A stretch of 64,000 nucleotides of DNA from a virus (IMGVR_UViG_3300045988_062793); one strand, 5' to 3'. Shown: positions 12,259-50,120, numbered from the stretch's first letter. Program-made: numbers and translations. The notes: a model not told the origin generated them from the letters alone.

Positions 12259-12331
12259 CGCGGGATGATAGCAGAGGTAGCTAGTCAGGCTCATAACCTG
12301 AAGGTCGTCGGTTCGAATCCGACTCCCGCTA
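12259..12331 (+). tRNA. tRNA-Met (anticodon CAT); position 1-72 mismatch and an extra nucleotide before the D-stem
   Basis: Anticodon stem tcagg/cctga with loop ctcataa, D-arm tagc agaggta gcta, T-arm gtcgg ttcgaat ccgac, acceptor cgcggga/tcccgct. Confidence 0.6.
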
Positions 12332-12362
12332 CTAAGTTATTTTTAACAATTAAAATTAGATT

Positions 12363-12788: not shown

Positions 12789-13078
12789 GTGTAATACAAC
12801 AAGTTTATTTAGCTGAAGCTGGTTATTCTATTTACATAAAGGGAATTAAACCAGATAAGGATAATGAATGTTCTGGTGAGATTACTATAAATGGTAATCC
12901 CACTAGATTAGAGAGAAAAGAACGCTATCATATTGATGGCAGTATGCTTGTAACTGACAATTACCACATTCCTATGGACTTTATAATTAATTTTCTACAG
13001 GCCAATGGTTGTATAGAACAGAAGGATGGTAAGATGTATGTTGTATTAAAGGAAGTAGAATTTAAGCTTAATAAATAA
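12785..13078 (+). CDS. Hypothetical protein (97 aa)
   Basis: ORF track; start overlaps the upstream stop (ATGA). Confidence 0.45.
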   Translation: MSVIQQVYLAEAGYSIYIKGIKPDKDNECSGEITINGNPTRLERKERYHIDGSMLVTDNYHIPMDFIINFLQANGCIEQKDGKMYVVLKEVEFKLNK

Positions 13079-13656: not shown

Positions 13657-13897
13657 TAAGACAATCACAACACATCTTACAAATATGAAAGATGGAGATG
13701 TAGCTGAGATTGTAAATTGGTTCTGTGACGAGGAAATGGAGCCTGGAACTATAGTTCAGAGGTACGGAGATGCTTTAATTATCATTGGTGGGCGTAGCGG
13801 TCTATGCTATCCTAAGCTGTTTACTGTTGAGGATACGCGTCGTTTGCTTACTTGTAAGGTCACAATTTTGCCTCCTGGCTCAACTATAATGCTATAA
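13640..13897 (+). CDS. Hypothetical protein (85 aa)
   Basis: ORF track. Confidence 0.45.
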   Translation: MAKVINKTITTHLTNMKDGDVAEIVNWFCDEEMEPGTIVQRYGDALIIIGGRSGLCYPKLFTVEDTRRLLTCKVTILPPGSTIML

Positions 13898-14331
13898 TTT
13901 CTTTTCTCCAGTTTTCTAATCAGAGATAAACTGGAACATGGGCCTACTTGGATTTGACAGGCGATTACGAATTATAAGGACGTGTAGAGCGCAATCTCTT
14001 TAAACGAAGAAAACAAATAACTGCAGAAATTGCACCTGTAAGAATGGCAGCCTAAGCTGCTGACTTATTAATAGACAATATTAATCAAGTCGGGTTAATG
14101 GGGAGACCTAGAAACAGAAGAGGTTTGTATCTAAGTGTTATAACGAGACCTTCGGGGAAGAATCATAGTACCTACAGGTTACAGTGAAGCTTAGATGCAT
14201 TAACTTGAAAGCCAAAGGTTAGTAGAGCTGAAATCTCCACTGCCTATCTATGGGCTACAAATAGACGTTCTCCAACGTAAATGGGGTGGTGGAAGAATGA
14301 CTTCTAGTCAGCCCCCAGTCTCGGCATTTAT
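13898..14331 (+). ncRNA. About 430-nt noncoding, relatively GC-rich, probably structured RNA region of unknown class, directly upstream of tRNA-Thr
   Basis: No ORF over 30 codons in any + frame even allowing TAG read-through; local GC content above its surroundings; several stable hairpins including a cc(ttcg)gg UUCG-type tetraloop. Confidence 0.3.
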
Positions 14332-14404
14332 TCCCCTGTAGTTTAGTTGGTTAGAACACGTGATTTGTAATCTCGAGACCTCGGTTCGAATCCGAGTGGG
14401 GGAT
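14332..14404 (+). tRNA. tRNA-Thr (anticodon TGT)
   Basis: Acceptor tcccctg/tggggga with G-U pairs, D-arm gttt agttggtta gaac, anticodon loop tttgtaa (stem has one T-T mismatch), T-arm ctcgg ttcgaat ccgag. Confidence 0.6.
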
Positions 14405-14431
14405 CTTAACCATTAAATTAGATTAATTTTT

Positions 14432-15106
14432 ATGACTAGATTGGAAAAGTATTTAGTAGCAACTGCTACTGAGATTATCGAAGCGGAAACAACTGTTTCT
14501 CGCTACTTTGTCATTGGAAACGTCAAAGTTAGAGTATCAGACCATTTAAGTAAAATGAGTGATGCAGACTTACAAGTGATTATTCCATTGAACGGAGGGA
14601 CTAAGTATATAGTTACTGTTAAAGATAGTCCTGGAAAATTTCTTGTGTGGAATGCAACTCAAATAAAAGACTTTATTCCTTCATTGCAGATTATTAAGGG
14701 CTTGAAGGAAGGAGTGCAACTTAAGCCAAAACCTAAAGACTCTGCAGTTCAGAAGATTCAGCTAGCATTAAATAATAGTAATACCGATGGAGGTTCGTTA
14801 ACGTTTGATGGTACTATTATTGAGTCTAGATTGAAAGAAAAGCAACTTACTTCCAAACAGCGGGAAGTTTTCAGGAGAACTAAATCTACTTGGGACATTT
14901 CTCAGATTGGAACATTACCCAGTATGATTAAAGTAGATTTGGGATTGTCAAATGGTTCTGTAAACGAAGATGTGCAGATATTTCTAACTTGTACATCTTT
15001 AACCTACAAAGAAATTCTGAACATTTATAAAATAATAGTTGTTGATAACCGTATGGTTCCAACTATTAAACTGTTGCAAGAAGCTTATAGCTTGATTGTG
15101 CAGTAG
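14432..15106 (+). CDS. Hypothetical protein (224 aa); the only well-supported gene in the window ending in TAG
   Basis: ORF track; stop TAG at 15104-15106, 3 nt before tRNA-Glu. Confidence 0.5.
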   Translation: MTRLEKYLVATATEIIEAETTVSRYFVIGNVKVRVSDHLSKMSDADLQVIIPLNGGTKYIVTVKDSPGKFLVWNATQIKDFIPSLQIIKGLKEGVQLKPKPKDSAVQKIQLALNNSNTDGGSLTFDGTIIESRLKEKQLTSKQREVFRRTKSTWDISQIGTLPSMIKVDLGLSNGSVNEDVQIFLTCTSLTYKEILNIYKIIVVDNRMVPTIKLLQEAYSLIVQ

Positions 15107-15109
15107 GAT

Positions 15110-15181
15110 AGCGCCATCATCTAAGGGTTAGGATTCAGGCTTTTCACGCCTGCCATACGGGTTCGAATCCCGTTGGCGTTA
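15110..15181 (+). tRNA. tRNA-Glu (anticodon TTC)
   Basis: Acceptor agcgcca/tggcgtt, anticodon stem caggc/gcctg with loop ttttcac, T-arm acggg ttcgaat cccgt. Confidence 0.7.
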
Positions 15182-15186
15182 CTATG

Positions 15187-15220
15187 TACCCCAGCAGCGG
15201 AAGTTGTTGGGGTATTTTTT
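15187..15220 (+). terminator. Rho-independent terminator (10-bp stem taccccagca/tgttggggta plus T6)
   Basis: Strong hairpin followed by tttttt, right after the tRNA-Glu gene. Confidence 0.65.
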
Positions 15221-15238
15221 GTTTAATATAATTAATAA

Positions 15239-15559
15239 TTGATGAGAAAAACATTTGAGTTTGTAAAGGTTGGAGGAGTCTGGTTCTATTGGTGGCCAGA
15301 TTACGACGGAACACCAGAGGAACTAGCAATGGTTGGTGGTGCAGATGAACTTCTTGATTCTCTAGATAATAAGTTTGTTAGATTGCAGATGGTTGACCCA
15401 GCTGCAGCTAAGATAACGTTGTCTAAAATTGAGGAGGATGAATGTGGAGCAACTTACTTATGCAAAAGTAAGAATTACAATGACAGGGTATGGATTTGTG
15501 CTGTAACTCTATCAGTATTCGGGGAATATCCTCAAAATATTTACCTAAAAGATATGTAA
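15239..15559 (+). CDS. Hypothetical protein (106 aa)
   Basis: ORF track. Confidence 0.45.
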   Translation: MMRKTFEFVKVGGVWFYWWPDYDGTPEELAMVGGADELLDSLDNKFVRLQMVDPAAAKITLSKIEEDECGATYLCKSKNYNDRVWICAVTLSVFGEYPQNIYLKDM

Positions 15560-15562
15560 AAA

Positions 15563-16015
15563 ATGAAAACGTTAAATGAGATTTTAGACAATTACAAAGA
15601 CTATGCCGTAGTTCTCGATGACCGTTTCGGTTCTAGATTAGCAAAGTTTTTAACAGAAGAGCAGTTAGAAAAAATAGGCTTCAAGTACGATGGTGATGAA
15701 CCTTATCCCGAACCCAAAGAATGGACTAGAGAGAATATTCTTGTCCAACTTAAAGAAGATGTAGAGTTCGGATTTGAAAAAGCCCTTGACAAGAGAGGTA
15801 TTTCTGCAAGTTTGATGTTCGCTGTGGTTCTTGGATGGAATAGAGTTCTTGAGGAAGGCTTAGAGGATTATCCAGAGGATAACTATGCTATGTATGGATT
15901 GCCATTATTTAAGGCTACTGCGGAAAAGTATGGCTGGGAGAATCCTATCGGAGACGATAGTGGAAGCGAGGACTATTATAACGAAGAGTATGATGAAGGA
16001 TTGTACTGCGATTAA
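15563..16015 (+). CDS. Hypothetical acidic protein (150 aa)
   Basis: ORF track. Confidence 0.45.
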   Translation: MKTLNEILDNYKDYAVVLDDRFGSRLAKFLTEEQLEKIGFKYDGDEPYPEPKEWTRENILVQLKEDVEFGFEKALDKRGISASLMFAVVLGWNRVLEEGLEDYPEDNYAMYGLPLFKATAEKYGWENPIGDDSGSEDYYNEEYDEGLYCD

Positions 16016-16181
16016 AGTCATTGCCGAAGCTCTGGAAGAATATGAAAATAATTTCAACCATAAGATAAGTATCTTAGAAAGCAAGATTATTCTCTATGAA
16101 AAGGAGAGAAAAGCTATTATAAGACATCTTAAGGAAGGGAATATAGAATTATTAAAGAGTTATTTTGGAATTGAAAAATGA
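15996..16181 (+). CDS. Small hypothetical protein (track ORF 15885..16181 trimmed to an internal Met to avoid a 130-nt overlap)
   Basis: Alternate frame overlapping the upstream gene; start is uncertain. Confidence 0.25.
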   Translation, partial: KDCTAIKVIAEALEEYENNFNHKISILESKIILYEKERKAIIRHLKEGNIELLKSYFGIEK

Positions 16182-16338
16182 AGGAATACTACCTGATTAA
16201 GTGCAGAAATAATATCCCATTCATTATAGGTCAGTATGATACCGAAGAAGATGCTAGGAAGGCGAAGAATCGTGAGAATCCTAATTCCGAGCTTATGATA
16301 GTAGTTAATATAGAAAAGGATAAGCCTGAGAAAACATC

Positions 16339-16635
16339 ATGATTACTGAGATTTCATACGATAAGGACTTATTAGGAAAGGAAGTTAGGGGTACAAATAC
16401 TTCCTACTGGGGTATATCAGCTTTACAGGCAGGCCACGATGACATCCGCCAAGATACTTCAAAATATTTATTTAGAGACTGTGTGGTAGATAGTGGACAT
16501 AAAGGGATAATTATAGGGTTCGAAGATAATAACCAATTCTTTGATTACTATTATATAGTCTATGTCCCAGAACTTGATAAAGTTGTTTATCAACTATGTA
16601 ATGATGCAAGATTTATTAATTCTATTGAGATATGA
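16339..16635 (+). CDS. Hypothetical protein (98 aa)
   Basis: ORF track. Confidence 0.4.
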   Translation: MITEISYDKDLLGKEVRGTNTSYWGISALQAGHDDIRQDTSKYLFRDCVVDSGHKGIIIGFEDNNQFFDYYYIVYVPELDKVVYQLCNDARFINSIEI

Positions 16636-17129
16636 AAAAGAGAGTTTTAATTATTTTAATGATTAGTATTGTATTCGGATTTGCAACTGGTTATTCCTTG
16701 CACCACTGGATACATTCTGCGAGGTTTCCAGAGGAGAAAATTATGCTGATGCCGGAACATCCATTCTATTTGATGGAGGAGGTGAATGAGGAAGTATTGT
16801 ATAATACTCTTAAACACTATGATTTCCCAAGTCCTGCTATCATAACAGCTCAGGCTATTCTAGAATCTGGTAACTTCAAGTCTAAACTTTGTAAGGACAA
16901 CAATAATTTGTTCGGACTGTATAATTCAAGAACGATGTCCTATTTCAAGTTTGATAGTTGGATAAGCTGTGTATTTGCTTATAAGCAATTTATTCTAAGT
17001 AGGTACGATCCAGAAGAGGACTATTATAGATTCCTAGATAGGATTGGATATGCCGAAGATTCTCTATATGAGAGTAAGGTTAAAGAATTAGAGTTAGATA
17101 TTATCAACAAGTATGGAAGCCCAGATTGA
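16632..17129 (+). CDS. Peptidoglycan hydrolase, glucosaminidase (GH73/FlgJ-like) domain with N-terminal TM or signal-anchor; candidate endolysin-like enzyme
   Basis: AIITAQAILESGNFKSKLCKDNNNLFGLYN matches the glucosaminidase (mannosyl-glycoprotein endo-beta-N-acetylglucosaminidase) signature; N-terminal hydrophobic helix LIILMISIVFGFATGY. Confidence 0.55.
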   Translation: MKKRVLIILMISIVFGFATGYSLHHWIHSARFPEEKIMLMPEHPFYLMEEVNEEVLYNTLKHYDFPSPAIITAQAILESGNFKSKLCKDNNNLFGLYNSRTMSYFKFDSWISCVFAYKQFILSRYDPEEDYYRFLDRIGYAEDSLYESKVKELELDIINKYGSPD

Positions 17130-17334
17130 AAAGGCTATTGAGCTTAGAAAACAAGCTAACTTTAAGATTTTAACTAGACTAGCTCAAATCATAGAATGTA
17201 GTCCACATTTGCGATTCCAGCAAATATTATCTAATTACAAAGTCTGTGAATTAGGTAAGGATAAGTTCTATGAGGAGAGTATAGAAACTCTTAGGAATTT
17301 AGAAGGAGAAATGAACAAAAAGTTGAACACTTAA
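17113..17334 (+). CDS. Hypothetical protein (73 aa)
   Basis: ORF track. Confidence 0.4.
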   Translation: MEAQIEKAIELRKQANFKILTRLAQIIECSPHLRFQQILSNYKVCELGKDKFYEESIETLRNLEGEMNKKLNT

Positions 17335-17344
17335 TAGATTTAAA

Positions 17345-19360
17345 ATGGAATTTAAGAATTTTAAGAAAGATGTAGAAGCTGCTTTCAATAATATGATTGC
17401 AGAAAACCTGTTTGTTGCTAATGTTGATAAAGACCTCCTTTGGATGGGCTATCTTCTGTCGTTTGAAGATGAAACCGTTAGACAAGACCATAACTGCAAT
17501 GCCTGTAAATCTTTTATCCGGCATTATGGTAAAGTTGTAGCGATTGACCCTCAAACATATAAGACTAAAACATTCTGGGATGATGTGCACACTCCTGGAT
17601 ACGAGAAAACAGCACAGGCTCTAGCTAAATTAGTTAAGGAAGCTGGAATAGGAGATGTCTTCATTCAAGATGTGAACGAATTTCATGGTTGTGACCATAA
17701 TGTTCAACTACTCCCTGATGGAACAACTAGAACTTGGACACATCTGTACGTAACTATTCCGAATAACTTCAAGTTCAACAGGCGAGTTCATGGTTTTGAC
17801 TCTGCTGCCGGTTACAGGGGAGATGTCAGAGCAAGAGCTGGGGTATTTGAACGCTCTATCAGCGAGCTTAAGCTGGAGGCAGTTGAAACTGTTATTGAGC
17901 TTATAGAAGGAAATAATCTCTATAGAGGTGCAGAGTTCTTGAAGAGTTTGGAGGAATTTAGAAGAACACTAGTTACTGCTCAAACTCTGAGTCCAGAAGT
18001 AAGAACTAACTATTGCTGGTTAAACTTTAAGTCTCCTATAGCTAAGATTAGAAATACGGCTATGGGAACTTTACTTATTGATCTAAGCAATGGTGTAGAT
18101 CTGGAGAAAGCCGTAAGAGCGTATGAAAACATCATGGCTCCTGCTAACTATAAGAGACCTACTGCTCTTATTACTAAGAAACAAATTGAAGCCGCTCAGA
18201 AGAAGGTAGAAGAGCTAGGTCTTACTGATGCACTTCCTCGTCGTCATGCTCATGTGGAAGATATTTCTGTGAATGATGTTCTATTCGTAAATAGAGATAC
18301 TAGAGCAAAGATGAAGGGAGGAATGTTTGATATGCTCTCTGAGACTTCTACAGTAAATCCAAAAGAGTTTACCAAAGCCCAAGAAGTTTCTGCTGATGCC
18401 TTTGTCAAGAATGTACTTCCAGGAGCTAAGGAGGTTTCTATCTTGGTAGAGAACAGACATATTCCCAACTTTGTTACTCTGACTGCTCCTGAAAATCCGG
18501 ATGCTGGACAGTTGTTTAAGTGGAATAACAACTTTGCTTGGGTTTATAATGGTTCTGTAGCCGATTCCTTCAAGGAGAAGGTAAAGGCTGCTGGTGGAAA
18601 TGTAGACGGTTTCATGAGATGCTCTCTTCACTGGTTTAACTATGATGACCTTGACCTTCATGTAACCGAACCTGGTGGAAGAGAAATCTATTATGGAAGC
18701 AAAACTGGTTATACTGGAGGAACTCTTGATGTTGACATGAATGCAGGTTCCGGAAAAACTAGAGATGCTGTTGAGAACATCATATGGACAGACCCTAGCA
18801 GACTAAGACCGGGAGATTATGTGGTAAGAGTGCATAACTTCTATAAGAGGGAAAGTATTGATTTTGGTTTCGAAATGGAAATCGAGATTAATGGAGAACT
18901 TCACAAATTCCAGTATGGAAAAGTAGTTCTGAGCAAGGAATACATTGAAGTTGCTCGTATCCATGTTGATGGACAAAGAAACATTTCCATGACTCCTACT
19001 ATTAAAGAGGGTTCTACATCGTTCAAATCTACTAACGAGTGGGGAATTGATACAATGAAATTCCAGAAGGTTTCTTGTATTATGTTCTCTCCTAATCATT
19101 GGGAAGGCAACGCTATAGGAAACAAGCATCTGTTCTTTATGATAGATGGATGCAAGAATCCAGACCCTGTTAGAGGTTTCTTTAATGAATATCTGAGAGC
19201 TGACCTTGAAAAGGAGCATAGAAGAGTGTTTGAAGCTCTTGGTTCTAGAGCAAAAGCTGAGTACAGTGATGACCAGTTGAGTGGATTGGGATTTTCTAGC
19301 ACATCACACAATGATGTTGTTGTAAAAGTTGATAATAAATCATTTAAAATCATTTTCTAA
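17345..19360 (+). CDS. Large hypothetical protein (671 aa), function unknown
   Basis: ORF track; no motif recognised by eye. Confidence 0.5.
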   Translation: MEFKNFKKDVEAAFNNMIAENLFVANVDKDLLWMGYLLSFEDETVRQDHNCNACKSFIRHYGKVVAIDPQTYKTKTFWDDVHTPGYEKTAQALAKLVKEAGIGDVFIQDVNEFHGCDHNVQLLPDGTTRTWTHLYVTIPNNFKFNRRVHGFDSAAGYRGDVRARAGVFERSISELKLEAVETVIELIEGNNLYRGAEFLKSLEEFRRTLVTAQTLSPEVRTNYCWLNFKSPIAKIRNTAMGTLLIDLSNGVDLEKAVRAYENIMAPANYKRPTALITKKQIEAAQKKVEELGLTDALPRRHAHVEDISVNDVLFVNRDTRAKMKGGMFDMLSETSTVNPKEFTKAQEVSADAFVKNVLPGAKEVSILVENRHIPNFVTLTAPENPDAGQLFKWNNNFAWVYNGSVADSFKEKVKAAGGNVDGFMRCSLHWFNYDDLDLHVTEPGGREIYYGSKTGYTGGTLDVDMNAGSGKTRDAVENIIWTDPSRLRPGDYVVRVHNFYKRESIDFGFEMEIEINGELHKFQYGKVVLSKEYIEVARIHVDGQRNISMTPTIKEGSTSFKSTNEWGIDTMKFQKVSCIMFSPNHWEGNAIGNKHLFFMIDGCKNPDPVRGFFNEYLRADLEKEHRRVFEALGSRAKAEYSDDQLSGLGFSSTSHNDVVVKVDNKSFKIIF

Positions 19361-19362
19361 TT

Positions 19363-19737
19363 ATGTTTAAACAAGCGTCAAAAATGAAGTTGCGTTTCGC
19401 AACTAGTAAAGGTAATCTGAGTGTAGAAGATTTGTGGGACTTGAGCCTGCCAGTATTGGATAAATTAGCCGTTTCTTACGATGAGGAACTAGCTAAAAGT
19501 CCAAGAAAGTCTTTCATAACTAATGATACTCCCAGCAATACCGAACTTGAATTGAAGTTCAATATTGTGAAGGAGATTATAACGGATAAGCTAAAAGAGA
19601 AGGCTGATAGAGAGACAGCTAAGAATAAGGCTGCTGAAAAGGCTCGCCTGACGGAACTGTTAGCTAAGAAACAATCTGAGAAGTTAGAAAGCTTGTCCGA
19701 AGATGAAATCAAACGGAGACTCGCCGAACTCGGGTGA
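19363..19737 (+). CDS. Hypothetical protein (124 aa, charged coiled-coil-like C-terminus)
   Basis: ORF track. Confidence 0.45.
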   Translation: MFKQASKMKLRFATSKGNLSVEDLWDLSLPVLDKLAVSYDEELAKSPRKSFITNDTPSNTELELKFNIVKEIITDKLKEKADRETAKNKAAEKARLTELLAKKQSEKLESLSEDEIKRRLAELG

Positions 19738-20014
19738 GTGTGTAGTATTAAAGACTGTCAGTCCACAAATCTTAGACAGACTAAGAGAAAGTGGGTTGAC
19801 AGTTTGTATTTGTTGCGAATTTGAAGGAGTAGCCTGGTTGACATTCAGTCCTGGACTACCCTTTGATATTCATGGAGAGGGTTACGATTTTGAAGAGCTT
19901 GGGTTAATAGGCACAGAAGCTAATCTAAGATACTTTGAAAAAGTTACCCCTAACTATATTGATTGTGGAACTGATGTTGATAAGTTTATTAACACCTGTC
20001 TACAGTTTAAGTAA
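19703..20014 (+). CDS. Hypothetical protein (103 aa)
   Basis: ORF track. Confidence 0.4.
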   Translation: MKSNGDSPNSGECVVLKTVSPQILDRLRESGLTVCICCEFEGVAWLTFSPGLPFDIHGEGYDFEELGLIGTEANLRYFEKVTPNYIDCGTDVDKFINTCLQFK

Positions 20015-20130
20015 GTTAACAGTTTTTAACTTTGAATTTAACAATTCGGAGACTAATCTAGTAAGAAGATTAGAAAAATGATACTTTAGGATTATCTCTC
20101 GGTAGCGGTTCGTGAGAATAGCTACCATAT

Positions 20131-20215
20131 GCCCGGATGGTGGAATTGGTAGACACGTCAGATTTAAGCTCTGATGCCCATTGAGGGCGTGTGGGTTCGA
20201 GTCCCACTTCGGGTA
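20131..20215 (+). tRNA. tRNA-Leu (anticodon TAA), class II
   Basis: Acceptor gcccgga/ttcgggt, anticodon stem tcaga/tctga with loop tttaagc, long variable arm, T-arm gtggg ttcgagt cccac. Confidence 0.75.
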
Positions 20216-20232
20216 CTATAAAATGTTTTGAT

Positions 20233-23851: not shown

Positions 23852-24868
23852 ATGAAGAGAATTTTTAGTATTATTTGTTTGTGTTTGATGTGTGCATTTG
23901 CTAGCGCACAAGTTGTTGAGACTGGAAGTATGAAGGATAACTGGTATATTTCTGGTAATGTTGGAACTACTATTTGGGATAACCATAGAAGTTGGGCAGA
24001 ACCAAATGATGTACTAGTAAACATTGCTATTGGTAAGGAGATTACTCCTATCTTTGGCTTGGAGTTAGACATGATGGCTGGAATGAACCAAGGAAATAAA
24101 ACATTCTTTGATTCACATAATTTGACAGCTAACGTTACTACCAATCTTACTAACCTGATATGTGGATATAACGGAGATAGACGTCTGTTTGAGCCTATAT
24201 TAATCATTGGTGCTGGTTGGTATCATACTTATGGAGGTGTCTATAATAATGTATCCGCCCGTGGAGCCGTTAGATGTAACTTTAATATCTCTAATAGATG
24301 GGCATTAAATGTTACTCCTGAGTATATGTTACTTCCCAAGACTTCCCCTCTGAATCATGAGTTTAACATCTATATTGGTGCTACCTATCGCTTTAAGTCT
24401 AGCAAAGGGGACTTTCCAATTATGAAGTTGTATAGTGATGCCGAGGTTGAAAGCCTAAACGCTTCTATTAATGAGTTGAGAGCCAAGAATGAGGAACTTA
24501 TGGCTCGTAAACCAATAGAAATTGTTAAGACGGACACAATCGAAATTACTAAAGTAGAGCTTTTGACTCCAAAAATTCAATTCCTTCAAAATTCTTCAGA
24601 GATTTCTAAAACTTCCAATGTGGCTGTCTCAGAACTAGCTTCCTATATTTCTAATAGTGGAAAAGCTTATGTGATTGAGGGATATGCTTCGGAAGAGGGT
24701 CCAGAAGAGTTTAATAATAACCTCGCTGTAGCTAGAGCAGAATCTATGAAGAAAGCTCTGATTAGCTATGGTGCTCCAGAGGATAAGTTGGTTGTTAAGG
24801 GATGTGGAATTACCACTGAATTTGGAGATAATGAATTTAATCGTATCGTAATAATTTCTGAACAATGA
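23852..24868 (+). CDS. OmpA-family outer-membrane protein (signal peptide, beta-barrel-like N-terminal part, coiled-coil linker, C-terminal OmpA peptidoglycan-binding domain)
   Basis: Signal peptide MKRIFSIICLCLMCAFASAQ; alternating amphipathic strands; C-terminal ...AYVIEGYASEEGPEEFNNNLAVARAESMKKALISYG... resembles an OmpA_C domain. Confidence 0.65.
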   Translation: MKRIFSIICLCLMCAFASAQVVETGSMKDNWYISGNVGTTIWDNHRSWAEPNDVLVNIAIGKEITPIFGLELDMMAGMNQGNKTFFDSHNLTANVTTNLTNLICGYNGDRRLFEPILIIGAGWYHTYGGVYNNVSARGAVRCNFNISNRWALNVTPEYMLLPKTSPLNHEFNIYIGATYRFKSSKGDFPIMKLYSDAEVESLNASINELRAKNEELMARKPIEIVKTDTIEITKVELLTPKIQFLQNSSEISKTSNVAVSELASYISNSGKAYVIEGYASEEGPEEFNNNLAVARAESMKKALISYGAPEDKLVVKGCGITTEFGDNEFNRIVIISEQ

Positions 24869-25109
24869 AGTATAAGAAAAAAGTAGCTTGGTTAAAGGCA
24901 AAGCAAGCATGGTGGGATAAACAAGGAAAAGATTTTCAGGCTGCAACTACCAGACCTGGGTCTGTTAAAACTCGATAAATCATGGTTGCATTTATAATTG
25001 TGTGCATAATGTTTGCCGCGTATATTTATTATGACCCGTATGTAGACATTACAGAGGATAATGTACTACTATGGTATAATAAAAGTGGCAATAGAGAATA
25101 TATTATTCT

Positions 25110-25322
25110 ATGGTCGAGAAAAACTTAATTAAGGCATTTGTTGCCGTTCTGTTAATCGTTGTGATTTACAACGTCAGCTTATGGTTATTATCCGAATCAT
25201 TGTATGCTGCAAATATCTTGGGGTTGTTACTATTACTAGTGGCAATCCCAAGTTTAGTTTATAGGATATTCAAATACATTAAGAAACATTATTTAAATAA
25301 GGAAAATGAAGACAATTATTAA
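25110..25322 (+). CDS. Small membrane protein (70 aa, two TM helices)
   Basis: ORF track; hydrophobic. Confidence 0.4.
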   Translation: MVEKNLIKAFVAVLLIVVIYNVSLWLLSESLYAANILGLLLLLVAIPSLVYRIFKYIKKHYLNKENEDNY

Positions 25323-26133
25323 GCTTTTGTGTGTATTAACTTTGGTGTTTGGCTTGTCTAGTTGTGGCTACGAGAGAATTGATGCTGGTTACGAAGGCAT
25401 TAAGGTGAATCTATACGGAGACGGTAAGGGAGTAGACGATGTGTCTCTTGTTACTGGCGCGGTGTGGTATAATCCTGTTACTACGGCTGTATATGAATAT
25501 CCTACATTCGTACAGACTGTGGACTATCCTCCTTTCAGTATTAATGCTAAAGATGGATCATCATTTACTGTAGACCCTACAATTTCTTTGAAGATTGTTG
25601 ACGGGAAATCACCAGAAGTATTTAAGAAGTATAGAAAGGAAGATATTGTAGAGGTAATTAACACTACTTTGTATAATTACGTAAAGAATGCTTTTCGCAT
25701 TCAGCTGAATAACTATACTACTGATGAACTAGTAAGTAAACGTGAGGAGTTTGAGAAGTCTATAGAAGATAGACTGTCAAAGGAACTCTTGGCTGAGAAT
25801 TTTCAGCTTGAACAAATGACTTCTGGTCTTCAATATCCACAGACGCTAGTCAATTCTATTGATGCTAAGAATGCTGCAATTCAACAGGCTTTGAAGGCAG
25901 AGAATGAAGTTAAGACTATTGAGGCAGAAGCTAAAAAGAAAGTAGCAGCTGCACAAGGAGAGGCAGAAGCTCTTAAGATTAAGGGTGATGCAGAAGCTGA
26001 ATATAATAGAAAGATTTCAGCATCTTTATCAGTTCTCATAGTTCAGCAGGATATGATTAAGAAGTGGGATGGAAAACTTCCTACTTATGGTCAGGTTCCC
26101 ACCTTATTTAAAGACGTAGCTAATAACAAATGA
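25306..26133 (+). CDS. SPFH/band-7 (prohibitin/HflC-like) lipoprotein
   Basis: Lipoprotein signal MKTIIKLLCVLTLVFGLSSCGY; SPFH-like core followed by an A/E/K-rich helix (EAEAKKKVAAAQGEAEALKIKGDAEAEYNRKI). Confidence 0.55.
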   Translation: MKTIIKLLCVLTLVFGLSSCGYERIDAGYEGIKVNLYGDGKGVDDVSLVTGAVWYNPVTTAVYEYPTFVQTVDYPPFSINAKDGSSFTVDPTISLKIVDGKSPEVFKKYRKEDIVEVINTTLYNYVKNAFRIQLNNYTTDELVSKREEFEKSIEDRLSKELLAENFQLEQMTSGLQYPQTLVNSIDAKNAAIQQALKAENEVKTIEAEAKKKVAAAQGEAEALKIKGDAEAEYNRKISASLSVLIVQQDMIKKWDGKLPTYGQVPTLFKDVANNK

Positions 26134-26477
26134 TGTATCTAGTAATATGCACTGTGATGGTAATCATCACGGTGCTTATCTTGAAAGATACCCATGTAAC
26201 CGTTTATTACAATGGGTATAGCAGAAGTGTGGCACTTATAGAAGAAGACTATGACCTTAAAGTTCCAGTGTGGCTAGTTTTAGTAATACTAATCCTAGGA
26301 TTTATCCCAGTACTGAACATTATGCTATACACAGTAGGATATTTATTCTATATAGTTCATGCTGTGTGGAATCCAGACAAGTTGTCTGGATATACGCATA
26401 AGTTCAATCTAAGAGGAAATAATTTTCTAACTAGAATAGTGAAGAAGATATGGAAATTCTTAAATGTATGTGTATAA
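26130..26477 (+). CDS. Membrane protein (115 aa, 2-3 TM helices), hypothetical
   Basis: ORF track. Confidence 0.45.
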   Translation: MMYLVICTVMVIITVLILKDTHVTVYYNGYSRSVALIEEDYDLKVPVWLVLVILILGFIPVLNIMLYTVGYLFYIVHAVWNPDKLSGYTHKFNLRGNNFLTRIVKKIWKFLNVCV

Positions 26478-26974
26478 CACTGAAACATCTTAGGCGAATA
26501 CTTAGACATAAGTTTTGGGTAGCTTATTACTGTTTTCAGTTAGGTTTATACAAACAGGGCATCTTGCACGACTTATCTAAATTCGGATGGTATGAGTTCT
26601 CTCGTTCTGTAAAATTTTACGATGATAACACATCTCCCTTAAACAAGGAAAAAGAAATTCTAGGATATTCTAGGTCTTATTTACATCACAGAGGAAGAAA
26701 TCCACACCATTATGAATACTGGGTAACTAAGCTAGACATTGGCGGTGTTCCAGTGAAGATGCCTAAAGAGTATGCTCTAGAATTGGTATGCGATTATCTG
26801 GCTGCTGGTAAAGTATACAACGGTAATAGTTTTCAAGGAGAATATAACTGGTGGATTAAGTATATAAATTCTCCTAGGGCTATCCATCCAGAAACGAAGG
26901 AATTTATCACTCAGTGTTTTAAGAATTTAGCTAGTGGTAAAGGCATGAAAAGTTTATTAACAATTAGTTATTAA
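26450..26974 (+). CDS. Hypothetical His-rich protein (possible metal-dependent hydrolase), immediately upstream of NAMPT
   Basis: LHDLSKF and HHRGRNPHHYEYW motifs; function not established. Confidence 0.35.
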   Translation: MEILKCMCITLKHLRRILRHKFWVAYYCFQLGLYKQGILHDLSKFGWYEFSRSVKFYDDNTSPLNKEKEILGYSRSYLHHRGRNPHHYEYWVTKLDIGGVPVKMPKEYALELVCDYLAAGKVYNGNSFQGEYNWWIKYINSPRAIHPETKEFITQCFKNLASGKGMKSLLTISY

Positions 26975-26987
26975 AATAATTTTTAGA

Positions 26988-28538
26988 ATGGAAATAATTA
27001 ATGCAACAGATGGCTATAAATTGGGCCACCATAGAATGTATCCAGAAGGTACTGAACAAGTTTACAGTAATTGGACTCCTAGAAGTAACAAATACTTTCC
27101 AGAAGCCACTGAAGGTTCTGTAGTATTCGGAATCCAATATTTAATTAAGAAGTATCTGATTGATGAATTTAATCAGAATTTCTTTGGATTGCCCAAAGAG
27201 AAAGCTGTAGAAATGTTTTATCGAAGAGTTCATAACTTCGTGGGAATTGAGTCCGTAGGATATAAACATATTGAAGCCTTGTATGATTTAGGTTATCTTC
27301 CCATTCGCATTAAAGCGTTGCCAGAAGGTTCTGTATGTCCTATCAGAGTTCCCATGATGACTATTACTAATACAAAGTCAGAGTTCTTCTGGTTAACTAA
27401 TTATCTAGAGACTTTGATTAGTTGTACTCTGTGGATGCCTTGCACTTCTGCTACTAGAGCAAGACTCTATAAGAAGGAACTTAAAAGACACGCAGTACAT
27501 ACTGGATTTCCAGAAGATGTAAATCTGGATTTCTTGTGTCATGACTTCTCTATGAGAGGAATGGCTGGTTTAGAGGCTGCTATCATTTCTGGTATGGCAC
27601 ATATGACTTCGTTTGTTGGAAGTGAGACCATTCCAGCTATTGCTGCTCTAGAAGAATATTATGGTGCAAATTCTGACAATGAATTAATTGCTGCTACTGT
27701 TCCAGCTACAGAACATTCTGTAATGTGTGCTGGTGGAGAAGAGGACGAACTTCAAACCTTTAAGCGATTAATTAATGAATTGTATCCATCTGGGTTCGTT
27801 TCTATAGTTTCTGATACTTGGGACTTCTGGAATGTTATTGAAAACTTCCTTCCCAAATTAAAGAAGGATATTATGGCTCGTGATGGGCGTGTAGTTATTC
27901 GTCCAGATAGCGGAGACCCCGTTGATATTATTTGTGGACTGAGAACTAATCCTCACTTCCATACTAGGATGAAAGAGGGTAAGTATTATTGTTGCTATGC
28001 TCCATTTAACGATGATGCTGAGTATGTAGAAGTGTCAGAGGGTCAATATTACGGAGCATATTATATGCTTGGTAAGATATTCGGCTGGAATACTACTTCT
28101 AAGGATTATCGCTATCCTAGTACGAAAATAGGTTTGTTGTATGGTGATTCTATCACTCTTGAACGTCAGAAGCAAATCTATATGCGACTTGAGAACGCTC
28201 ATATGGCAGCTTGCAATCTTGTTCTAGGAGTAGGCTCATTTTCATATCAGTATGCAAGTAGAGATAGCTTAGGATTTGCAATTAAGGCTACTGCTTGTGT
28301 AATTAATGGAGAATTGAAAGAAATCTTCAAACATCCTAAAACTGATGATGGTACTAAGAACTCTTTGAAAGGTTTGATTGCTGTCTATAAAGGTCTGGAT
28401 GGGAAGTATACTGCTACCGACCAGGTCTCAATCGAGGAGGAAAAAGAGGGATGCTTAGAGACTGTCTTTGAAGATGGTATCTTGAAGAAAGAATATTCTC
28501 TTGAAGAAATCAGACAAAGAATTGACCATGGACTTTAA
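26988..28538 (+). CDS. nadV: Nicotinamide phosphoribosyltransferase (NAMPT/NadV-like; alternatively a NAMPT-like Namat of NAD reconstitution pathway 1)
   Basis: N-terminal INATDGYKLGHHRMYP matches the NAMPT ATDSYK(V/L)xH motif; length 516 aa. Confidence 0.75.
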   Translation: MEIINATDGYKLGHHRMYPEGTEQVYSNWTPRSNKYFPEATEGSVVFGIQYLIKKYLIDEFNQNFFGLPKEKAVEMFYRRVHNFVGIESVGYKHIEALYDLGYLPIRIKALPEGSVCPIRVPMMTITNTKSEFFWLTNYLETLISCTLWMPCTSATRARLYKKELKRHAVHTGFPEDVNLDFLCHDFSMRGMAGLEAAIISGMAHMTSFVGSETIPAIAALEEYYGANSDNELIAATVPATEHSVMCAGGEEDELQTFKRLINELYPSGFVSIVSDTWDFWNVIENFLPKLKKDIMARDGRVVIRPDSGDPVDIICGLRTNPHFHTRMKEGKYYCCYAPFNDDAEYVEVSEGQYYGAYYMLGKIFGWNTTSKDYRYPSTKIGLLYGDSITLERQKQIYMRLENAHMAACNLVLGVGSFSYQYASRDSLGFAIKATACVINGELKEIFKHPKTDDGTKNSLKGLIAVYKGLDGKYTATDQVSIEEEKEGCLETVFEDGILKKEYSLEEIRQRIDHGL

Positions 28539-28965
28539 TCATCCTTTTGGGAAAGAAGCTTGCAAGAAACGACTATTAGAAGAGTATCATAAATACAGAA
28601 AGCTAATAGTCGCTTTCGATTTTGATAATACTATTTTCGATTACCATAATACTGGCGGAGATTATAGTTGCGTTATAGAACTACTTAAAGAATGCTCACT
28701 TCTAGGTTTTGAAATGATTTTATTCACCACTGATGAAGATGATTATAAAATTATGGCAAAGCAGACAATTTGTATGCGATTAGGAATAGCAAATATTACT
28801 TCTAATACTTTATCTGCTCCAAACATTAGTAGTTCTATATTCTCTAAATCTAAGAAACCTTATTACAATATCCTCCTAGATGATAGGGCAGGTCTAGAAG
28901 AAAGTTATGAAATCTTAAAATATGTAGTAGATGAAATTAAACTTAATCAACAAGGAAATCAGTGA
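28501..28965 (+). CDS. HAD-superfamily phosphatase-like protein
   Basis: Motif I VAFDFDNTIFD (DxDxT). Confidence 0.45.
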   Translation: MKKSDKELTMDFNHPFGKEACKKRLLEEYHKYRKLIVAFDFDNTIFDYHNTGGDYSCVIELLKECSLLGFEMILFTTDEDDYKIMAKQTICMRLGIANITSNTLSAPNISSSIFSKSKKPYYNILLDDRAGLEESYEILKYVVDEIKLNQQGNQ

Positions 28966-29740
28966 AATTAAGTACGATGTTACTAGATTTCCTGATGGAG
29001 AGCCTCAGTTTTTCCTTACTGAGGAATTAAACAGAAAGGAATCTATTGATGTCATTTGTAGAATATCTAATACTGAGGATTTATTCCTCTTAATGCAAGT
29101 AGGAGATATTTTAGATAGACAAGAAGTAGAATGGGATTTACATATTACTTATTTAATGTCTATGCGTATGGATAGAGTAATGAGTTTTAATCGTCCATTC
29201 TCCTTGAAAGTAGTATGTAATATGTTAAATAGCTTAGGCTATAGAAACATATATGTTCTTGAGGCACATTCTAGTAGAACTTTTCATCTTCTTGGTGACA
29301 GATGTTTACCTTGGGAATTTGGACACTACTCTTGGATTCCAGCCCAAAGTAATATCGTGTTCCCAGACCATGGGGCGAAGGACAGATATGGAAGTAACTA
29401 TTCTCACTATGGTTATTTAGTCTTCAAAAAGGAAAGAAATCTAGAGACTGGAAGAATTGAGTCCTTTGAAATAGAGGAGTCTAAGAATTGCTACTATTCT
29501 ACATTTGTGTTCATTGATGACTTGTGTGATGCTGGAGGAACTTTCCTAGGAGAGCTTAAGGTTCTCAAAGAGAGATATCCAAATAGCAAGTTTATCATAA
29601 TCGTATGTCATGTAGTTAATGATAAAGGCCTGGTTAATATGTGTAATAATTTTGACCAGGTTATTGTATCTAATTCTCATAGGGATATTAATTATCGTCC
29701 CAGCAACGAGAACTTAACTGTAATAGACGTTTGTAAATAA
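28931..29740 (+). CDS. Ribose-phosphate pyrophosphokinase family protein (PRPP synthetase-like; alternatively ADPR-PP synthetase Adps)
   Basis: FPDHGAKDRYG (PDxGxxxRA-like) and PRPP-binding loop VFIDDLCDAGGT. Confidence 0.6.
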   Translation: MKLNLINKEISEIKYDVTRFPDGEPQFFLTEELNRKESIDVICRISNTEDLFLLMQVGDILDRQEVEWDLHITYLMSMRMDRVMSFNRPFSLKVVCNMLNSLGYRNIYVLEAHSSRTFHLLGDRCLPWEFGHYSWIPAQSNIVFPDHGAKDRYGSNYSHYGYLVFKKERNLETGRIESFEIEESKNCYYSTFVFIDDLCDAGGTFLGELKVLKERYPNSKFIIIVCHVVNDKGLVNMCNNFDQVIVSNSHRDINYRPSNENLTVIDVCK

Positions 29741-29749
29741 CAAAATAAA

Positions 29750-30052
29750 ATGGTAATTGAAGGTCCTTTTTACAGACTTACTCCCATTAGTGAATCTTCT
29801 CCGAGGTTTGACTTGGAATTGTTGTATGATATTGGTGGGAAAAATCCGAGAAAAGAATTTAAAGTGGAGGGCTACGGCTATCCCCTAGAAGCTGCTATAG
29901 AGCGATGTCGCCATTATGCAGTAAGAAAAAAGTTCGGAAAAGATGAAGTTATAACTTTAGGTAGGTACTTAGATGAGTTTAAAAAGGCAAAGGAGGAAAT
30001 TAAACTCGAAGTCTCAGGAGATTCAGGAGATTCTAGCGGAGAGGCTGAATAA
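29750..30052 (+). CDS. Hypothetical protein (100 aa)
   Basis: ORF track. Confidence 0.4.
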   Translation: MVIEGPFYRLTPISESSPRFDLELLYDIGGKNPRKEFKVEGYGYPLEAAIERCRHYAVRKKFGKDEVITLGRYLDEFKKAKEEIKLEVSGDSGDSSGEAE

Positions 30053-30446
30053 GCTTTGTAGATTCTTAGATGAGGAATATGACGTTAATTGTGGAGGGTG
30101 TTGCTATATAGCATACTGTCTAGCCAGGCTACTAAGTAGAGATAAATTCAAGTTTAGAGTAATAATATACGAAGATTATGAGTTAGAAGATAGATTTAGT
30201 GAAATTTCTGGAAGCCATTATCATTACGCTATTGGCATCGGAAATTATACAATAAATTCTGCTGAATGTGATGAGGACGAAAGCTTTTGCAGAAATATAT
30301 ATTATAATGTAAGAGCTTCCGAGATTCTAGACCACTACAAAAATCGTAGCTGGAACGAATGTTATAATTCAGCAAAGAATAAGTTTATCTTTAGAACTAT
30401 TCAAGTATTTTATGACGACCTTACGGAAGACTTACGAGAAGGATAA
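29973..30446 (+). CDS. Hypothetical Cys-containing protein (157 aa)
   Basis: ORF track; overlaps the upstream ORF by about 80 nt, so the true start may be internal. Confidence 0.35.
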   Translation: MSLKRQRRKLNSKSQEIQEILAERLNKLCRFLDEEYDVNCGGCCYIAYCLARLLSRDKFKFRVIIYEDYELEDRFSEISGSHYHYAIGIGNYTINSAECDEDESFCRNIYYNVRASEILDHYKNRSWNECYNSAKNKFIFRTIQVFYDDLTEDLREG

Positions 30447-30699
30447 ACAGATTGTATATACACATGATAAGTTTATCTACTGTAGTTCGGTTTATCAAAT
30501 GTGGGGATGGGGAGCAGCCCTCATGGAAGAGAAGTATTATTCTTCTGATAAACCTATCACACTTAAAAAGAAAAATTTAATTTCTGTAAAGAGAAAGAAC
30601 TATTCACTGCATAGGTTTTTCGAATTACAGTTTGCTCCAGAAGAATATTTAATTAATAACGGTTTTAAAATTGTAGAAAATGAAACAGGATGTAGCTGA
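30412..30699 (+). CDS. Hypothetical protein (95 aa)
   Basis: ORF track. Confidence 0.4.
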   Translation: MTTLRKTYEKDKQIVYTHDKFIYCSSVYQMWGWGAALMEEKYYSSDKPITLKKKNLISVKRKNYSLHRFFELQFAPEEYLINNGFKIVENETGCS

Positions 30700-31270
30700 G
30701 TATTTGATTGACTCGTTTGTAGACTTTAAGGGTGAGGAACACAAGATTGTAGCGTGTGCTTTAAGCCAATCTCCAGAAGAGAGTGAGGATGGTTGCAAAC
30801 TTGCGGTAGGTTGGGTAAACGAAATGGACGAATTTGTCTGTGTGGACGATCCAGATTACGCAGAGGTTTGCAGAGTCGTATCTGTTGGTATCAGTGTATG
30901 TCACCCGACTGATACGTTTGACAAGGAGAGAGGTAAAGCCAATGCCTACAATAAAGCTTTGCACGACCCTAAATGTCCTACTATCTATACTAGAGATAGA
31001 GGAGTAGCTAGTAAGACCTTGGTAAAGGCTTTCTTGAAGCAGGAGGTTAATTTCCTTAAAGAGAATCCAGAGAGAATTATCAAGGGTTACAATCAGATGA
31101 AAGCTCGTTTTGACAAAAAGCAAGCTCTAAAAGCTAAAGTGGAAGGTCTCTCTGACAATGAGAAACTTGTTGTGAAACTGGCAATGAAGGAAGGTGTAGA
31201 TGTAGTCGGATGCGTTAAGCTCGTAGAGGAGGCTAAGGCTGCAGGTATTGAGATAAATGAACAAGACTAA
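30680..31270 (+). CDS. Hypothetical protein (196 aa)
   Basis: ORF track. Confidence 0.45.
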   Translation: MKQDVAEYLIDSFVDFKGEEHKIVACALSQSPEESEDGCKLAVGWVNEMDEFVCVDDPDYAEVCRVVSVGISVCHPTDTFDKERGKANAYNKALHDPKCPTIYTRDRGVASKTLVKAFLKQEVNFLKENPERIIKGYNQMKARFDKKQALKAKVEGLSDNEKLVVKLAMKEGVDVVGCVKLVEEAKAAGIEINEQD

Positions 31271-31562
31271 GTTTTGCTATATTTTAATTGTCATAATGGG
31301 ATTAATAATTATATATTTGTCTGTCCCTAAGAGAGATAGTAATCCTAGCACTCCTAATGTGCAAGAGATTGTGAGGGATTCTATCATTAGAGATAGCATT
31401 TATATAGTTAATGATTCCATTGTTGAGAAAATTAAATATATAGACAAGGAGTATGATGAGAAAGTGTCTACTATTATGTCTAGTTCTGATAGCATCAATT
31501 TGTGCTTTTTCTCAGAATACATCGACCGTTACAATAACCAGCGAACAGTTAAAGACAACTAA
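31257..31562 (+). CDS. Hypothetical membrane-anchored protein (101 aa)
   Basis: ORF track; N-terminal TM helix. Confidence 0.4.
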   Translation: MNKTKFCYILIVIMGLIIIYLSVPKRDSNPSTPNVQEIVRDSIIRDSIYIVNDSIVEKIKYIDKEYDEKVSTIMSSSDSINLCFFSEYIDRYNNQRTVKDN

Positions 31563-49267: not shown

Positions 49268-49569
49268 TTAGAAAATTTACAAATATTGTTTGCGTTTATT
49301 ATAACGACAAAAACTATATTCCAGCTAAATACAACTGTCCAGATTTAGAAATTGATGATGTAATTCTCAACTTGACTACAAATAAGGAGCAGAACTACGA
49401 AAAGATTTCTGAAATTATAGTTGATTATGCTTTTGCTTTGTTTTGTAACAAATCTGATTTAAAGGATTTCGCACAAGACCATAAGAAGTATAAGAGGCAG
49501 AACTGGAAATTGCTCGACTTTAGGGAAATAATTAAAACAACAGAGATAAAACCAAAAGATCAGAAATGA
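49264..49569 (+). CDS. Hypothetical protein (101 aa)
   Basis: ORF track. Confidence 0.4.
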   Translation: MIRKFTNIVCVYYNDKNYIPAKYNCPDLEIDDVILNLTTNKEQNYEKISEIIVDYAFALFCNKSDLKDFAQDHKKYKRQNWKLLDFREIIKTTEIKPKDQK

Positions 49570-50120
49570 AATATGGAGTTATTTTAGCTAGGTTTCAGCC
49601 CATTCACAATGGGCACCTAGCTTTAATTAAAAAAGCTTGTTCAGAGAACGATAAGGTTCTTTTGTTAGTTGGTAGTGCTGATAAAGTAAACAAGCGTAAT
49701 CCTATTCCTATAAAGGTTAGGATAAAATTACTAGAAACTGCCTTAGAGGACGAAGGTTTACTTAGTAGATGTATCATTCAGCCTCTTAATGATTTGACTG
49801 ATGAGTCTGATAACTCTCAGGATTGGGGATTCTATTTATATGCTAACATAGTTAGTATTATAAAAGAGTCCCATTTTAATATCTACTATAGCGATGGATA
49901 CGAAATTATTACAACATGGTTTCCAAAGTTTATGCTGAAGGGTTATATATCAATGACTCTCATGGCAAGAGAACAGGTAGAAGAAGGTATATCGGCTACT
50001 GTTGTAAGAGATGCCCTAAGATCTAATTTAAGCCTAGAAGGACTAGTTCCTAAGTGTGTTATAGATGCAAGATTTTATTTAACTGAATTTATTTTATTAC
50101 ATGAAAGTACTCATAATTAA
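49566..50120 (+). CDS. nadM: Nicotinamide-nucleotide adenylyltransferase, NadM type
   Basis: N-terminal [21 protein letters not shown] carries the nucleotidyltransferase (H/T)xGH motif in the NadM-specific RFQPxHxGH context; about 180 aa. Confidence 0.65.

Follow-up and report, generated by a model that had tools for sequence, protein, structure and literature searches.

Depletion of NAD+ is among the commonest antiviral strategies of bacteria, and NAD+ reconstitution pathway 1 (NARP1) is the main answer of phages to it. Bacteria evade NARP1 by leaving a phosphate on ADP-ribose (ADPR), as in aRES, and some phages reply with a Macro phosphatase. Specifically, the Macro protein Adpp of Vibrio phage Gary, encoded in the order Adps-Adpp-Namat, dephosphorylates ADPR-1''-phosphate so that NARP1 overcomes RES-type NAD+ phosphorylases, and this form is termed NARP1-AP (bioRxiv 10.64898/2026.01.28.702374). 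NARP1 itself is known from Bacillus phage SPbetaL1, Vibrio phage ICP1 and Escherichia phage Bas63 (Osterman et al., 2024), NARP2 combines the Nampt NadV of KVP40 with the NMNAT/Nudix protein NatV, and no phage with both NARP1 and NARP2 was found by Osterman et al. (2024). In bacteria, nadM, nadV and prs form NrtR-regulated operons (Rodionov et al., 2008; PMC2330246). Here we describe positions 26468-29740 of IMGVR_UViG_3300045988_062793, a viral DNA stretch of 64,000 nucleotides (nt; hereafter the window), where four tightly packed genes on the + strand form what we take, on balance, to be an extended NARP1 operon with a HAD phosphatase and a DUF5662 protein as accessories, joined by a separate gene for an NMN adenylyltransferase (NMNAT; NMN, nicotinamide mononucleotide) at 49566-50120.

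The operon and its probable NARP1 core

The first gene of the operon encodes a DUF5662 protein of 168 amino acids (aa) (26468..26974, alternative ATG at 26450; Pfam PF18907, E 5e-29), and its stop codon lies 13 nt ahead of the ATG of the second gene, predicted to encode Namat (26988..28538; 516 aa; phrog_448, E 3e-183; NCBIfam NF006629, 529 bits). The Namat gene overlaps by 11 nt with the gene for a capless HAD-superfamily phosphatase (28528..28965; 145 aa), which in turn overlaps by 35 nt with that of the Prs-like protein, a predicted Adps (28931..29740; 269 aa; phrog_619, E 1e-51), and only the 438-nt HAD gene lies between Namat and Adps. Since the gene ends overlap or nearly touch, 26468-29740 has the appearance of one operon. 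A preliminary description of the window had proposed an NAD+ gene set here, with a His-rich and a HAD gene as members of the cluster. All five open reading frames (ORFs) are indeed found on the + strand with family matches far beyond chance, the His-rich and HAD genes belong to the operon, and the motifs that it quoted, TDGYKLGHH (Namat aa 7-15), DDLCDAGGTF (the PP loop, Adps aa 196-205) and RFQPIHNGH (NMNAT aa 9-17), are all present. Two gene details have to be revised: the "His-rich protein" belongs to the family DUF5662, and the HAD gene, listed as an ORF from TTG 28501, probably starts 27 nt downstream at ATG 28528, because its homologues are about 145 aa long.

We assign the NAMPT-like protein to Namat (nicotinamide ADP-ribose transferase), the NAMPT-fold ligase of NARP1, because it scores 500 bits against SPbetaL1 Namat (PDB 9w5x/9w5w) versus 225 against human NAMPT, and because it contains the clamp motif GSFSYQYASRD; the Xanthomonas (Xcc) Nampt scores 201 bits. 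The adenine "selectivity clamp" defined in Namat provides a determinant at the sequence level (PMC12774641; 2026). In the window protein the clamp helix motif lies at aa 416-426 (nt 28233-28265), with F418 and Y422 as the aromatic residues and Ser instead of Thr at position 9, and the clamp loop PRSNKYFPEATEG at aa 31-43 has the length seen in NARP1 Namats and is longer than that of NARP2 Nampts. The third residue of such a loop is Arg, Lys or Tyr and the next one stacks if it is Lys or Tyr; in the alignment, on which this correspondence depends, K35 falls on R40 of SPbetaL1 and Y36 comes next. The residues of the catalytic core, which comprises a nicotinamide-stacking Phe/Tyr, Arg, Asp, a phospho-His and the equivalents of R306/D308, are retained when aligned to SPbetaL1 (D8, Y10, F187, S188, R190, H243, R305, D307, G386, and D387). 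Overall identity is 42-52% to the NARP1 Namats of SPbetaL1, ICP1 and a Felixounavirus, and 29-33% to the NARP2-type Nampts, which were taken from the KVP40-like phage XZ1, RB43 and phiRSL1; the region around NatV in Vibrio phage nt-1 holds no NadV. The clamp motif was also extracted from 193 Nampt homologues in the loci compared, and it divides them cleanly according to their genomic partner. The aromatic Namat form occurs in 181 of the 181 Adps-linked homologues with a readable motif (seven truncated ones gave none) and, Lak-type loci aside, in three further homologues from loci where no Adps was detected (L140, L343) or Adps was unread, and the form GG[GA]LLQxxxRD takes its place in eight proteins of the NARP2 type or NadV type from NrtR operons, among them the three NARP2-type phage Nampts and four NadV proteins of Mucilaginibacter NrtR operons. 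PDB 9ke8 was set aside for classification, as its sequence comes from none of the phages in the collection and its best match there reaches only 55%, to SPbetaL1.

The Prs-like protein is, as judged from profile matches and aligned residues, a member of the phage Adps family (ADP-ribose diphosphokinase), the PRPS-fold first enzyme of NARP1. The family profile phrog_619 also takes the biochemically and structurally characterised Adps of ICP1 (285 bits) and that of a Felixounavirus (334 bits), and the window protein fails every canonical Prs model, with 60.5 bits for TIGR01251 against a cut-off of 113; its closest solved relative, in a PDB copy that lacks ICP1 Adps, is a Prs at only 34 bits. The residues for ADPR recognition and catalysis identified in ICP1 Adps (PMC13586617; 2026) have the same residue in the window Adps at R87 (R79), H121 (H113), D161 (D146), the catalytic Lys K185 (K167), D212 (D196), D213 (D197), and D216 (D200), and C215 (C199) and F221 (F205) of ICP1 Adps are likewise conserved. 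The window protein is also short, as is ICP1 Adps (280 aa), which is without the C-terminal regulatory helices of PRPS (PMC13586617). A tblastn search with the canonical Prs of a Mucilaginibacter NrtR operon missed this window gene at E 0.01.

Based on the Namat result, the Adps family and the operon arrangement, the core of the operon very probably is NARP1. It resembles the NARP1 described by Osterman et al. (2024) in the clamp motif and core residues of Namat, in the Adps residues and in being a single operon, and differs from it in that Namat precedes Adps with a phosphatase between them and in that identity to the characterised proteins is only about 50% for Namat and 26-28% for Adps. The core assignment is ordinary on its own, a predicted new member of a known system; the accessory genes are the new part, and the embedded HAD and DUF5662 genes appear, from sequence and gene content, to constitute an unreported variant of the phosphatase-extended form. 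The preliminary description had pointed to a phage NAD+ reconstitution set of the anti-defence kind, with which the predicted pair of Namat and Adps agrees. It had also held that sequence cannot tell an enzyme making phosphoribosyl pyrophosphate (PRPP) from one making ADPR pyrophosphate (ADPR-PP); this no longer applies now that the determinants reported in 2026 (PMC12774641, PMC13586617) make the two distinguishable from sequence. Where it left open either or both routes, NARP1 is borne out and NARP2, as defined, is not: the window has no Nampt of the KVP40 clade, which is PRPP-specific and lacks the adenine clamp, its single Nampt homologue is of Namat type, and its NMNAT is without the Nudix half. 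Since a NARP2-clade Nampt is missing, the phage does not, strictly, breach the statement of Osterman et al. (2024).

A HAD phosphatase in an exchangeable middle slot

The protein encoded between Namat and Adps has a confident HAD (Rossmannoid) fold and contains the four catalytic motifs of the superfamily (DxDxT, T/S, K, and DD). Among 26 aligned homologues, motifs I (D31, D33, T35), III (K110) and IV (D118, D119) do not vary, and every homologue has either Thr or Ser in motif II (T67); beyond these, R15, D38 and R120 are invariant and H40, Y112, Y113 and N114 nearly so, and these extra residues are the same in NARP1-linked and in stand-alone members. The nearest solved relative is BT0820 (PDB 2obb; NCBIfam NF046079), for which no function was found in its annotations and structure entries, and the window protein lies far under the cut-off of that family (20 versus 165 bits). 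In PHROGs the family is labelled "phosphoheptose isomerase". The HAD proteins linked to NARP1 do not form a single clade in a rough neighbour-joining tree of the family, which precludes a rule based on clades.

The association of this HAD family with NARP1 is recurrent. A search with the family alignment found the HAD gene directly adjoining both Namat and Adps in 69 of 77 distinct viral loci, and in these loci together with four reference phages the gene orders are Namat-HAD-Adps (67), Adps-HAD-Namat (2), Adps-Namat-HAD (2), and HAD-Adps-Namat (1). Isolated phages contribute 82 records with a HAD homologue: the crAss-like phages cr126_1, cr111_1, DAC15 and DAC17 have the order Namat-HAD-Adps, Bacillus Bastillevirinae such as BPS10C have Adps-Namat-HAD, and the code-15 gut phage Phass-1 also has a homologue. 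In the Prevotella phage Lak-C1, a Lak megaphage (L277, 4001-5245), HAD is the gene immediately ahead of Adps and Namat is absent within 4 kb, and in Lak-B phages the one Namat place listed lies at a distance of some 225 kb from HAD, a second place not being located in the records. Hence the association extends over at least five unrelated phage lineages, namely Crassvirales, Herelleviridae, Lak megaphages, Phass-1, and the lineage of the window. In bacteria, with one genome taken per species, the HAD gene lies beside Namat and/or Adps in 43 of 68 homologue loci, and these belong to Flavobacteriia, Saprospiraceae and Paenibacillaceae (Paenibacillus, Cohnella). From this context we consider a functional tie of the HAD protein to the NARP1 pathway likely, with good confidence. 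A literature search combining the two found no HAD enzyme linked to NARP1, and HAD enzymes are mentioned neither in the aRES preprint (bioRxiv 10.64898/2026.01.28.702374) nor in the NAD+-synthesis section of the survey of viral NAD systems by Iyer et al.

The cluster of Phass-1 (L278, OQ749652.1; 881-5319) deserves separate mention. It runs from a nicotinamidase of the isochorismatase family through Adps, a Namat-like protein (GAYTYQYVTRD) and HAD to the NAD synthase NadE, and its gene content makes it a possible deamidated variant of NARP1, in which nicotinate would be converted via deamido-NAD to NAD+.

What the HAD protein may do is suggested by the gene that replaces it. Starting from a DUF5662 homologue that is 55% identical, we found contigs from pig gut with a DUF5662-Namat-Macro-Adps operon, whose gene ends overlap like those of the HAD variant. 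Among 80 viral contigs seeded by DUF5662, 47 have DUF5662-Namat-HAD-Adps, 13 have DUF5662-Namat-Macro-Adps, two have an empty middle slot, and none has both, so that HAD and Macro never occur together in the 60 viral contigs with collinear operons. Outside the cassette, phages with the Macro and the HAD variant have just two other small, unrelated ORFs in common, and therefore the cassette moves as one block in which the middle gene can be exchanged. The Macro protein from pig gut is about 36% identical to those encoded by genes abutting Adps in Vibrio harveyi phages, which have the same host as phage Gary. The window operon thus shares with NARP1-AP a phosphatase gene between the two core genes, its sister operons hold a Macro/Poa1p-like gene in that slot, and it differs from NARP1-AP in that its phosphatase is a capless HAD protein, with a fold unrelated to Macro, and in having a DUF5662 gene; no Macro homologue was found in the window, so the Macro gene that marks NARP1-AP is replaced in its slot by HAD, an equivalence that the preliminary description had not noted. 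From the equivalence of the slot and the intact HAD catalytic motifs, we infer that the HAD protein stands in for Adpp without being homologous to it and that, among the candidates, it most likely acts on ADPR-1''-phosphate, although the assignment of this particular substrate is tentative and somewhat less than evenly balanced. A broader and speculative possibility is that the protein removes the 1-phosphate from ribose substituted at position 5, acting on either ADPR-1''-phosphate or ribose-1,5-bisphosphate and yielding the substrate of Adps or of Prs, respectively.

The DUF5662 protein and the separate, probable NMNAT

The DUF5662 protein has the pattern H..HD..HH..HH..D, and the invariant residues of its family are H14, H34-D35, H73-H74, H80-H81, E83, and D109. 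It is a putative metal-dependent phosphohydrolase of the HD superfamily, in which H...HD...D residues bind the metal on an all-helical fold. A Foldseek comparison with the PDB was not significant and a sequence-profile search against the PDB gave noise only. Its gene precedes Namat in both operon variants, and at one locus (L179) it lies inside the operon between HAD and Adps. Whether it is a hydrolase linked to the pathway we regard as close to evenly balanced, leaning slightly to the negative side.

The stand-alone NMNAT-like protein (49566..50120, + strand; 184 aa) is of the NadM/archaeal type, has no Nudix domain, and is encoded 20 kb from the operon next to a dUTPase gene. Its motifs include HxGH (H14-N-G-H17) and ISATVVR (ISxTxxR; aa 142-148), and its best relatives in the PDB are all NMNATs, including 1f9a of M. 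jannaschii (E 1e-9), 1m8j of M. thermautotrophicum, and the NadM 2qjt. The assignment as an NMNAT is probable on these matches. Its homology to NatV of Vibrio phage nt-1 (29% identity) covers the N-terminal half, that of the adenylyltransferase, and the Nudix half is absent. The likeness to NARP2 consists in this match and in the presence of an enzyme of Nampt fold, which may still have PRPP activity; the differences are that this enzyme belongs to the Namat clade, that the NMNAT has no Nudix domain, and that the two genes are not in one operon. A close homologue of the NMNAT occurs in 52 viral contigs, 44 of which also have the NARP1-HAD cassette, and three more have NARP1 genes but no HAD (Namat and Adps in 065177 and 070130, Namat only in 066445). 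The more distant NARP1-HAD phages showed no NMNAT homologue by the same search, and hence the NMNAT is a trait of this lineage and not of NARP1. The closest homologue from an isolated phage (53%) is in Bacteroides phage BS-TP1, with no NARP1 genes in the 40 kb of it that were inspected. In the dUTPase encoded directly downstream of the NMNAT (50101-50682), about 75 aa precede the dUTPase domain as an N-terminal extension.

A hypothetical mechanism

By homology to the characterised enzymes, we propose that Adps takes the beta,gamma-pyrophosphate from ATP and places it on the 1'' position of ADPR, giving ADPR-PP, and that Namat couples nicotinamide with ADPR-PP to give NAD+, so that the two enzymes together would reverse the cleavage of NAD+ by TIR, SIR2 and SEFIR immune effectors. 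Based on gene context, we further propose that the HAD protein strips the phosphate from a phosphorylated ADPR derivative, for which the best candidate is the ADPR-1''-phosphate made by RES-type NAD+ phosphorylases; its product would be ADPR, the substrate of Adps, and the broader option is a 5-substituted ribose-1-phosphate as its substrate. The DUF5662 protein is less securely placed and could be an HD-type hydrolase whose step, on a different substrate derived from a nucleotide, lies upstream of the pathway or runs parallel to it. The NMNAT would convert NMN to NAD+. A characterised Namat retains PRPP-dependent NMN synthesis in vitro, with about half as much activity as human Nampt (PMC12774641), and for this reason an NMN route through the residual PRPP activity of Namat and the NMNAT is possible. 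NMN might also come from NADases that release it, such as the Metis system (bioRxiv 10.64898/2026.01.28.702374), after which the NMNAT could rebuild NAD+. The phage would thus handle several modes of NAD+ depletion.

The most far-reaching reading, which we advance tentatively and with less than even confidence, is that the HAD family is an isofunctional, non-homologous replacement of Adpp that defines a second widespread phosphatase-extended form of NARP1, with DUF5662 as a further accessory of HD type. If the HAD protein does the work of Adpp, the measure against the bacterial counter-measure would have arisen at least twice from unrelated folds, and its HAD type would be common in abundant phages of the human gut (crAss-like phages and Lak megaphages) as well as in the lineage of the window. 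The second phosphatase-extended form would then occur in bacterial genomes as well as in phages of both Bacteroidota and Bacillota, and HAD and DUF5662 would point to products of NAD+ cleavage in gut bacteria, and hence to defences, beyond those met by plain NARP1. It would also indicate a missing dephosphorylation step in the classical ADPR recycling operons, offer the BT0820-like HAD proteins and DUF5662, two families so far without a function, one that can be tested, and mark this phage lineage as one that combines NARP1 with a stand-alone NMNAT.

Alternative explanations

Several observations weigh against our reading of the operon, either of its core or of its accessory genes. Two substitutions set the window enzymes apart from the characterised NARP1 proteins. 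The nicotinamide-binding D215 of SPbetaL1 Namat (D219 of human NAMPT) is E213 in the window Namat; this change is conservative, the sole one in the catalytic core, and the Glu (window 27618-27629, Namat aa 211-214) is common to the gut clade of the window, cr126_1 and the Macro variant from pig gut. Similarly, Met replaces the adenine-contacting F92 of ICP1 Adps, as it also does in the Adps of the Felixounavirus. The Cys-Asp of the PP loop is not universal among Adps proteins: SPbetaL1 has DDLSSFGGTF and BPS10C has DDLISKGGTF. The pattern DDxCD had been considered as an Adps discriminator and was dropped, being unsafe because SPbetaL1 Adps is without it. The top NCBIfam match of the NMNAT, NF002243, is below its cut-off (57 versus 127 bits), and its gene is not physically linked to the operon. 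A bacterial metagenome-assembled genome has both a Macro and a HAD gene, flanking Adps (L342; DAORGW010000032.1, 3139-5192); it is the only locus with both among those examined, and its contig ends inside the HAD gene. In 25 of the 68 bacterial loci the HAD homologue stands alone beside unrelated genes, and in Clostridia, Bacilli and Planctomycetes the neighbours of such homologues give no functional clue. HAD homologues of 41-44% identity also close the NrtR-NadM/Nudix-NadV-Prs salvage operons of Mucilaginibacter, without Adps, and for this reason the HAD function may be general to nicotinamide and ADPR recycling rather than specific to ADPR-1''-phosphate; these operons share the terminal HAD gene with the window and differ in using a PRPP route with a Prs of the canonical kind, a NadV of GGALLQ type and a NadM-Nudix protein, none of which is found in the window. 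The loci with such operons are L312/L320 and L313/L318, and in L313 a SIR2_2+TPR protein is encoded between Prs and HAD. Finally, many near-identical contigs of one metagenome inflate the locus counts, which are not phylogenetically independent, so that the argument rests on recurrence in unrelated lineages and in different gene orders.

A plain salvage route of the NARP2 kind, in which the Prs-like protein makes PRPP, the NAMPT-like protein converts it to NMN and the NMNAT completes NAD+, would account for the presence of all three enzyme classes, for the 529 bits by which the NCBIfam nicotinate phosphoribosyltransferase equivalog is passed, and for the conservation of the NMNAT alongside the cassette within the lineage, and it is compatible with the PRPP activity that a characterised Namat keeps. 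We nevertheless consider it very improbable, given that the clamp motif and clade are of the Namat type and not of NARP2 or NadV, that the Prs-like protein fails all canonical Prs models and is missed by the tblastn search with the NrtR-operon Prs, that the NMNAT is distant and without the Nudix domain of NatV, and that the window holds no KVP40-type Nampt. It is also improbable, if less so, that HAD and DUF5662 are synteny neighbours only, generic nucleotide-metabolism or anti-defence genes of an early region with no role in NAD+ metabolism. The window is indeed a nucleotide-metabolism and replication module (NrdD/G, dUTPase, ligases, polymerase), DUF5662 is without NARP1 genes within 5 kb in 16 of the 80 contigs, and neither the HAD homologues away from NARP1 nor the isomerase label of the family would call for a pathway role. 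Such an explanation has to contend with an association that recurs in at least five unrelated phage lineages, three bacterial groups and four gene orders, with overlapping reading frames, and with a cassette that moves as a unit between phages otherwise sharing two unrelated ORFs; for DUF5662 the counter-evidence is weaker, consisting in its presence with both variants and its position inside the operon in L179.

More serious, though still rather unlikely, is the possibility that the HAD protein is tied to the pathway through another substrate. It could remove pyrophosphate (PPi) and so drive the reactions of Namat, Nampt and NMNAT forward, enlarge the substrate pool by dephosphorylating 2'-phospho-ADPR or NADP(H), or convert ribose-1,5-bisphosphate to ribose-5-phosphate. 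The operons of Mucilaginibacter that have this HAD family and no Adps speak for such a role, as does L342, where the co-occurrence of Macro and HAD argues for distinct functions, and the extra conserved residues, being the same in NARP1-linked and stand-alone proteins, suggest a single class of substrate for the whole family. Against this possibility, the usual substrates of HAD enzymes without a cap are large molecules and not PPi, HAD and Macro alternate in one slot of collinear operons, with no co-occurrence in 60 viral contigs, and HAD stays with Adps where Namat is elsewhere.

Genome setting

The window is the replication and nucleotide-metabolism region of a large AT-rich gut phage (GC content 35.8%), with every large ORF on the + strand, and also encodes NrdD/NrdG, dUTPase, DNA and RNA ligases, helicases, and DNA polymerase. 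Near-identical relatives are many IMG/VR contigs (about 95-190 kb) and GenBank MT836666.1 from human faeces. PADLOC gave no match for HAD, DUF5662, Namat or NMNAT, and a promoter and terminator scan of 24500-31500 returned promoter matches at the level expected from shuffled sequence, with a model that does not cover promoters of Bacteroidota. Upstream of the operon are 16 tRNA genes on the + strand (702-20216), with two each of tRNA-Met, -Cys, -Gly, -Ser, and -Leu, and the nearer neighbours encode an OmpA-family outer-membrane beta-barrel protein (23852-24868) and an SPFH/Band-7 protein (25306-26133); an SPFH gene likewise adjoins the cassette in the crAss-like phage cr126_1.

The cassette itself is a mosaic among the IMG/VR loci L006-L196. 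Contigs whose Namat is 93-97% identical to that of the window carry divergent alleles of its partners, with identities of 100% or 68-73% for HAD, 99%, 66% or 41% for Adps, and 99%, 91% or 66% for DUF5662, and this mosaic suggests frequent exchange of alleles within the operon. In one of these loci (L007:3673-4497) and its sister contigs, an extra gene for an AAA+ ATPase (Pfam AAA, E 6e-13) lies between the 66%-identical DUF5662 allele and Namat.

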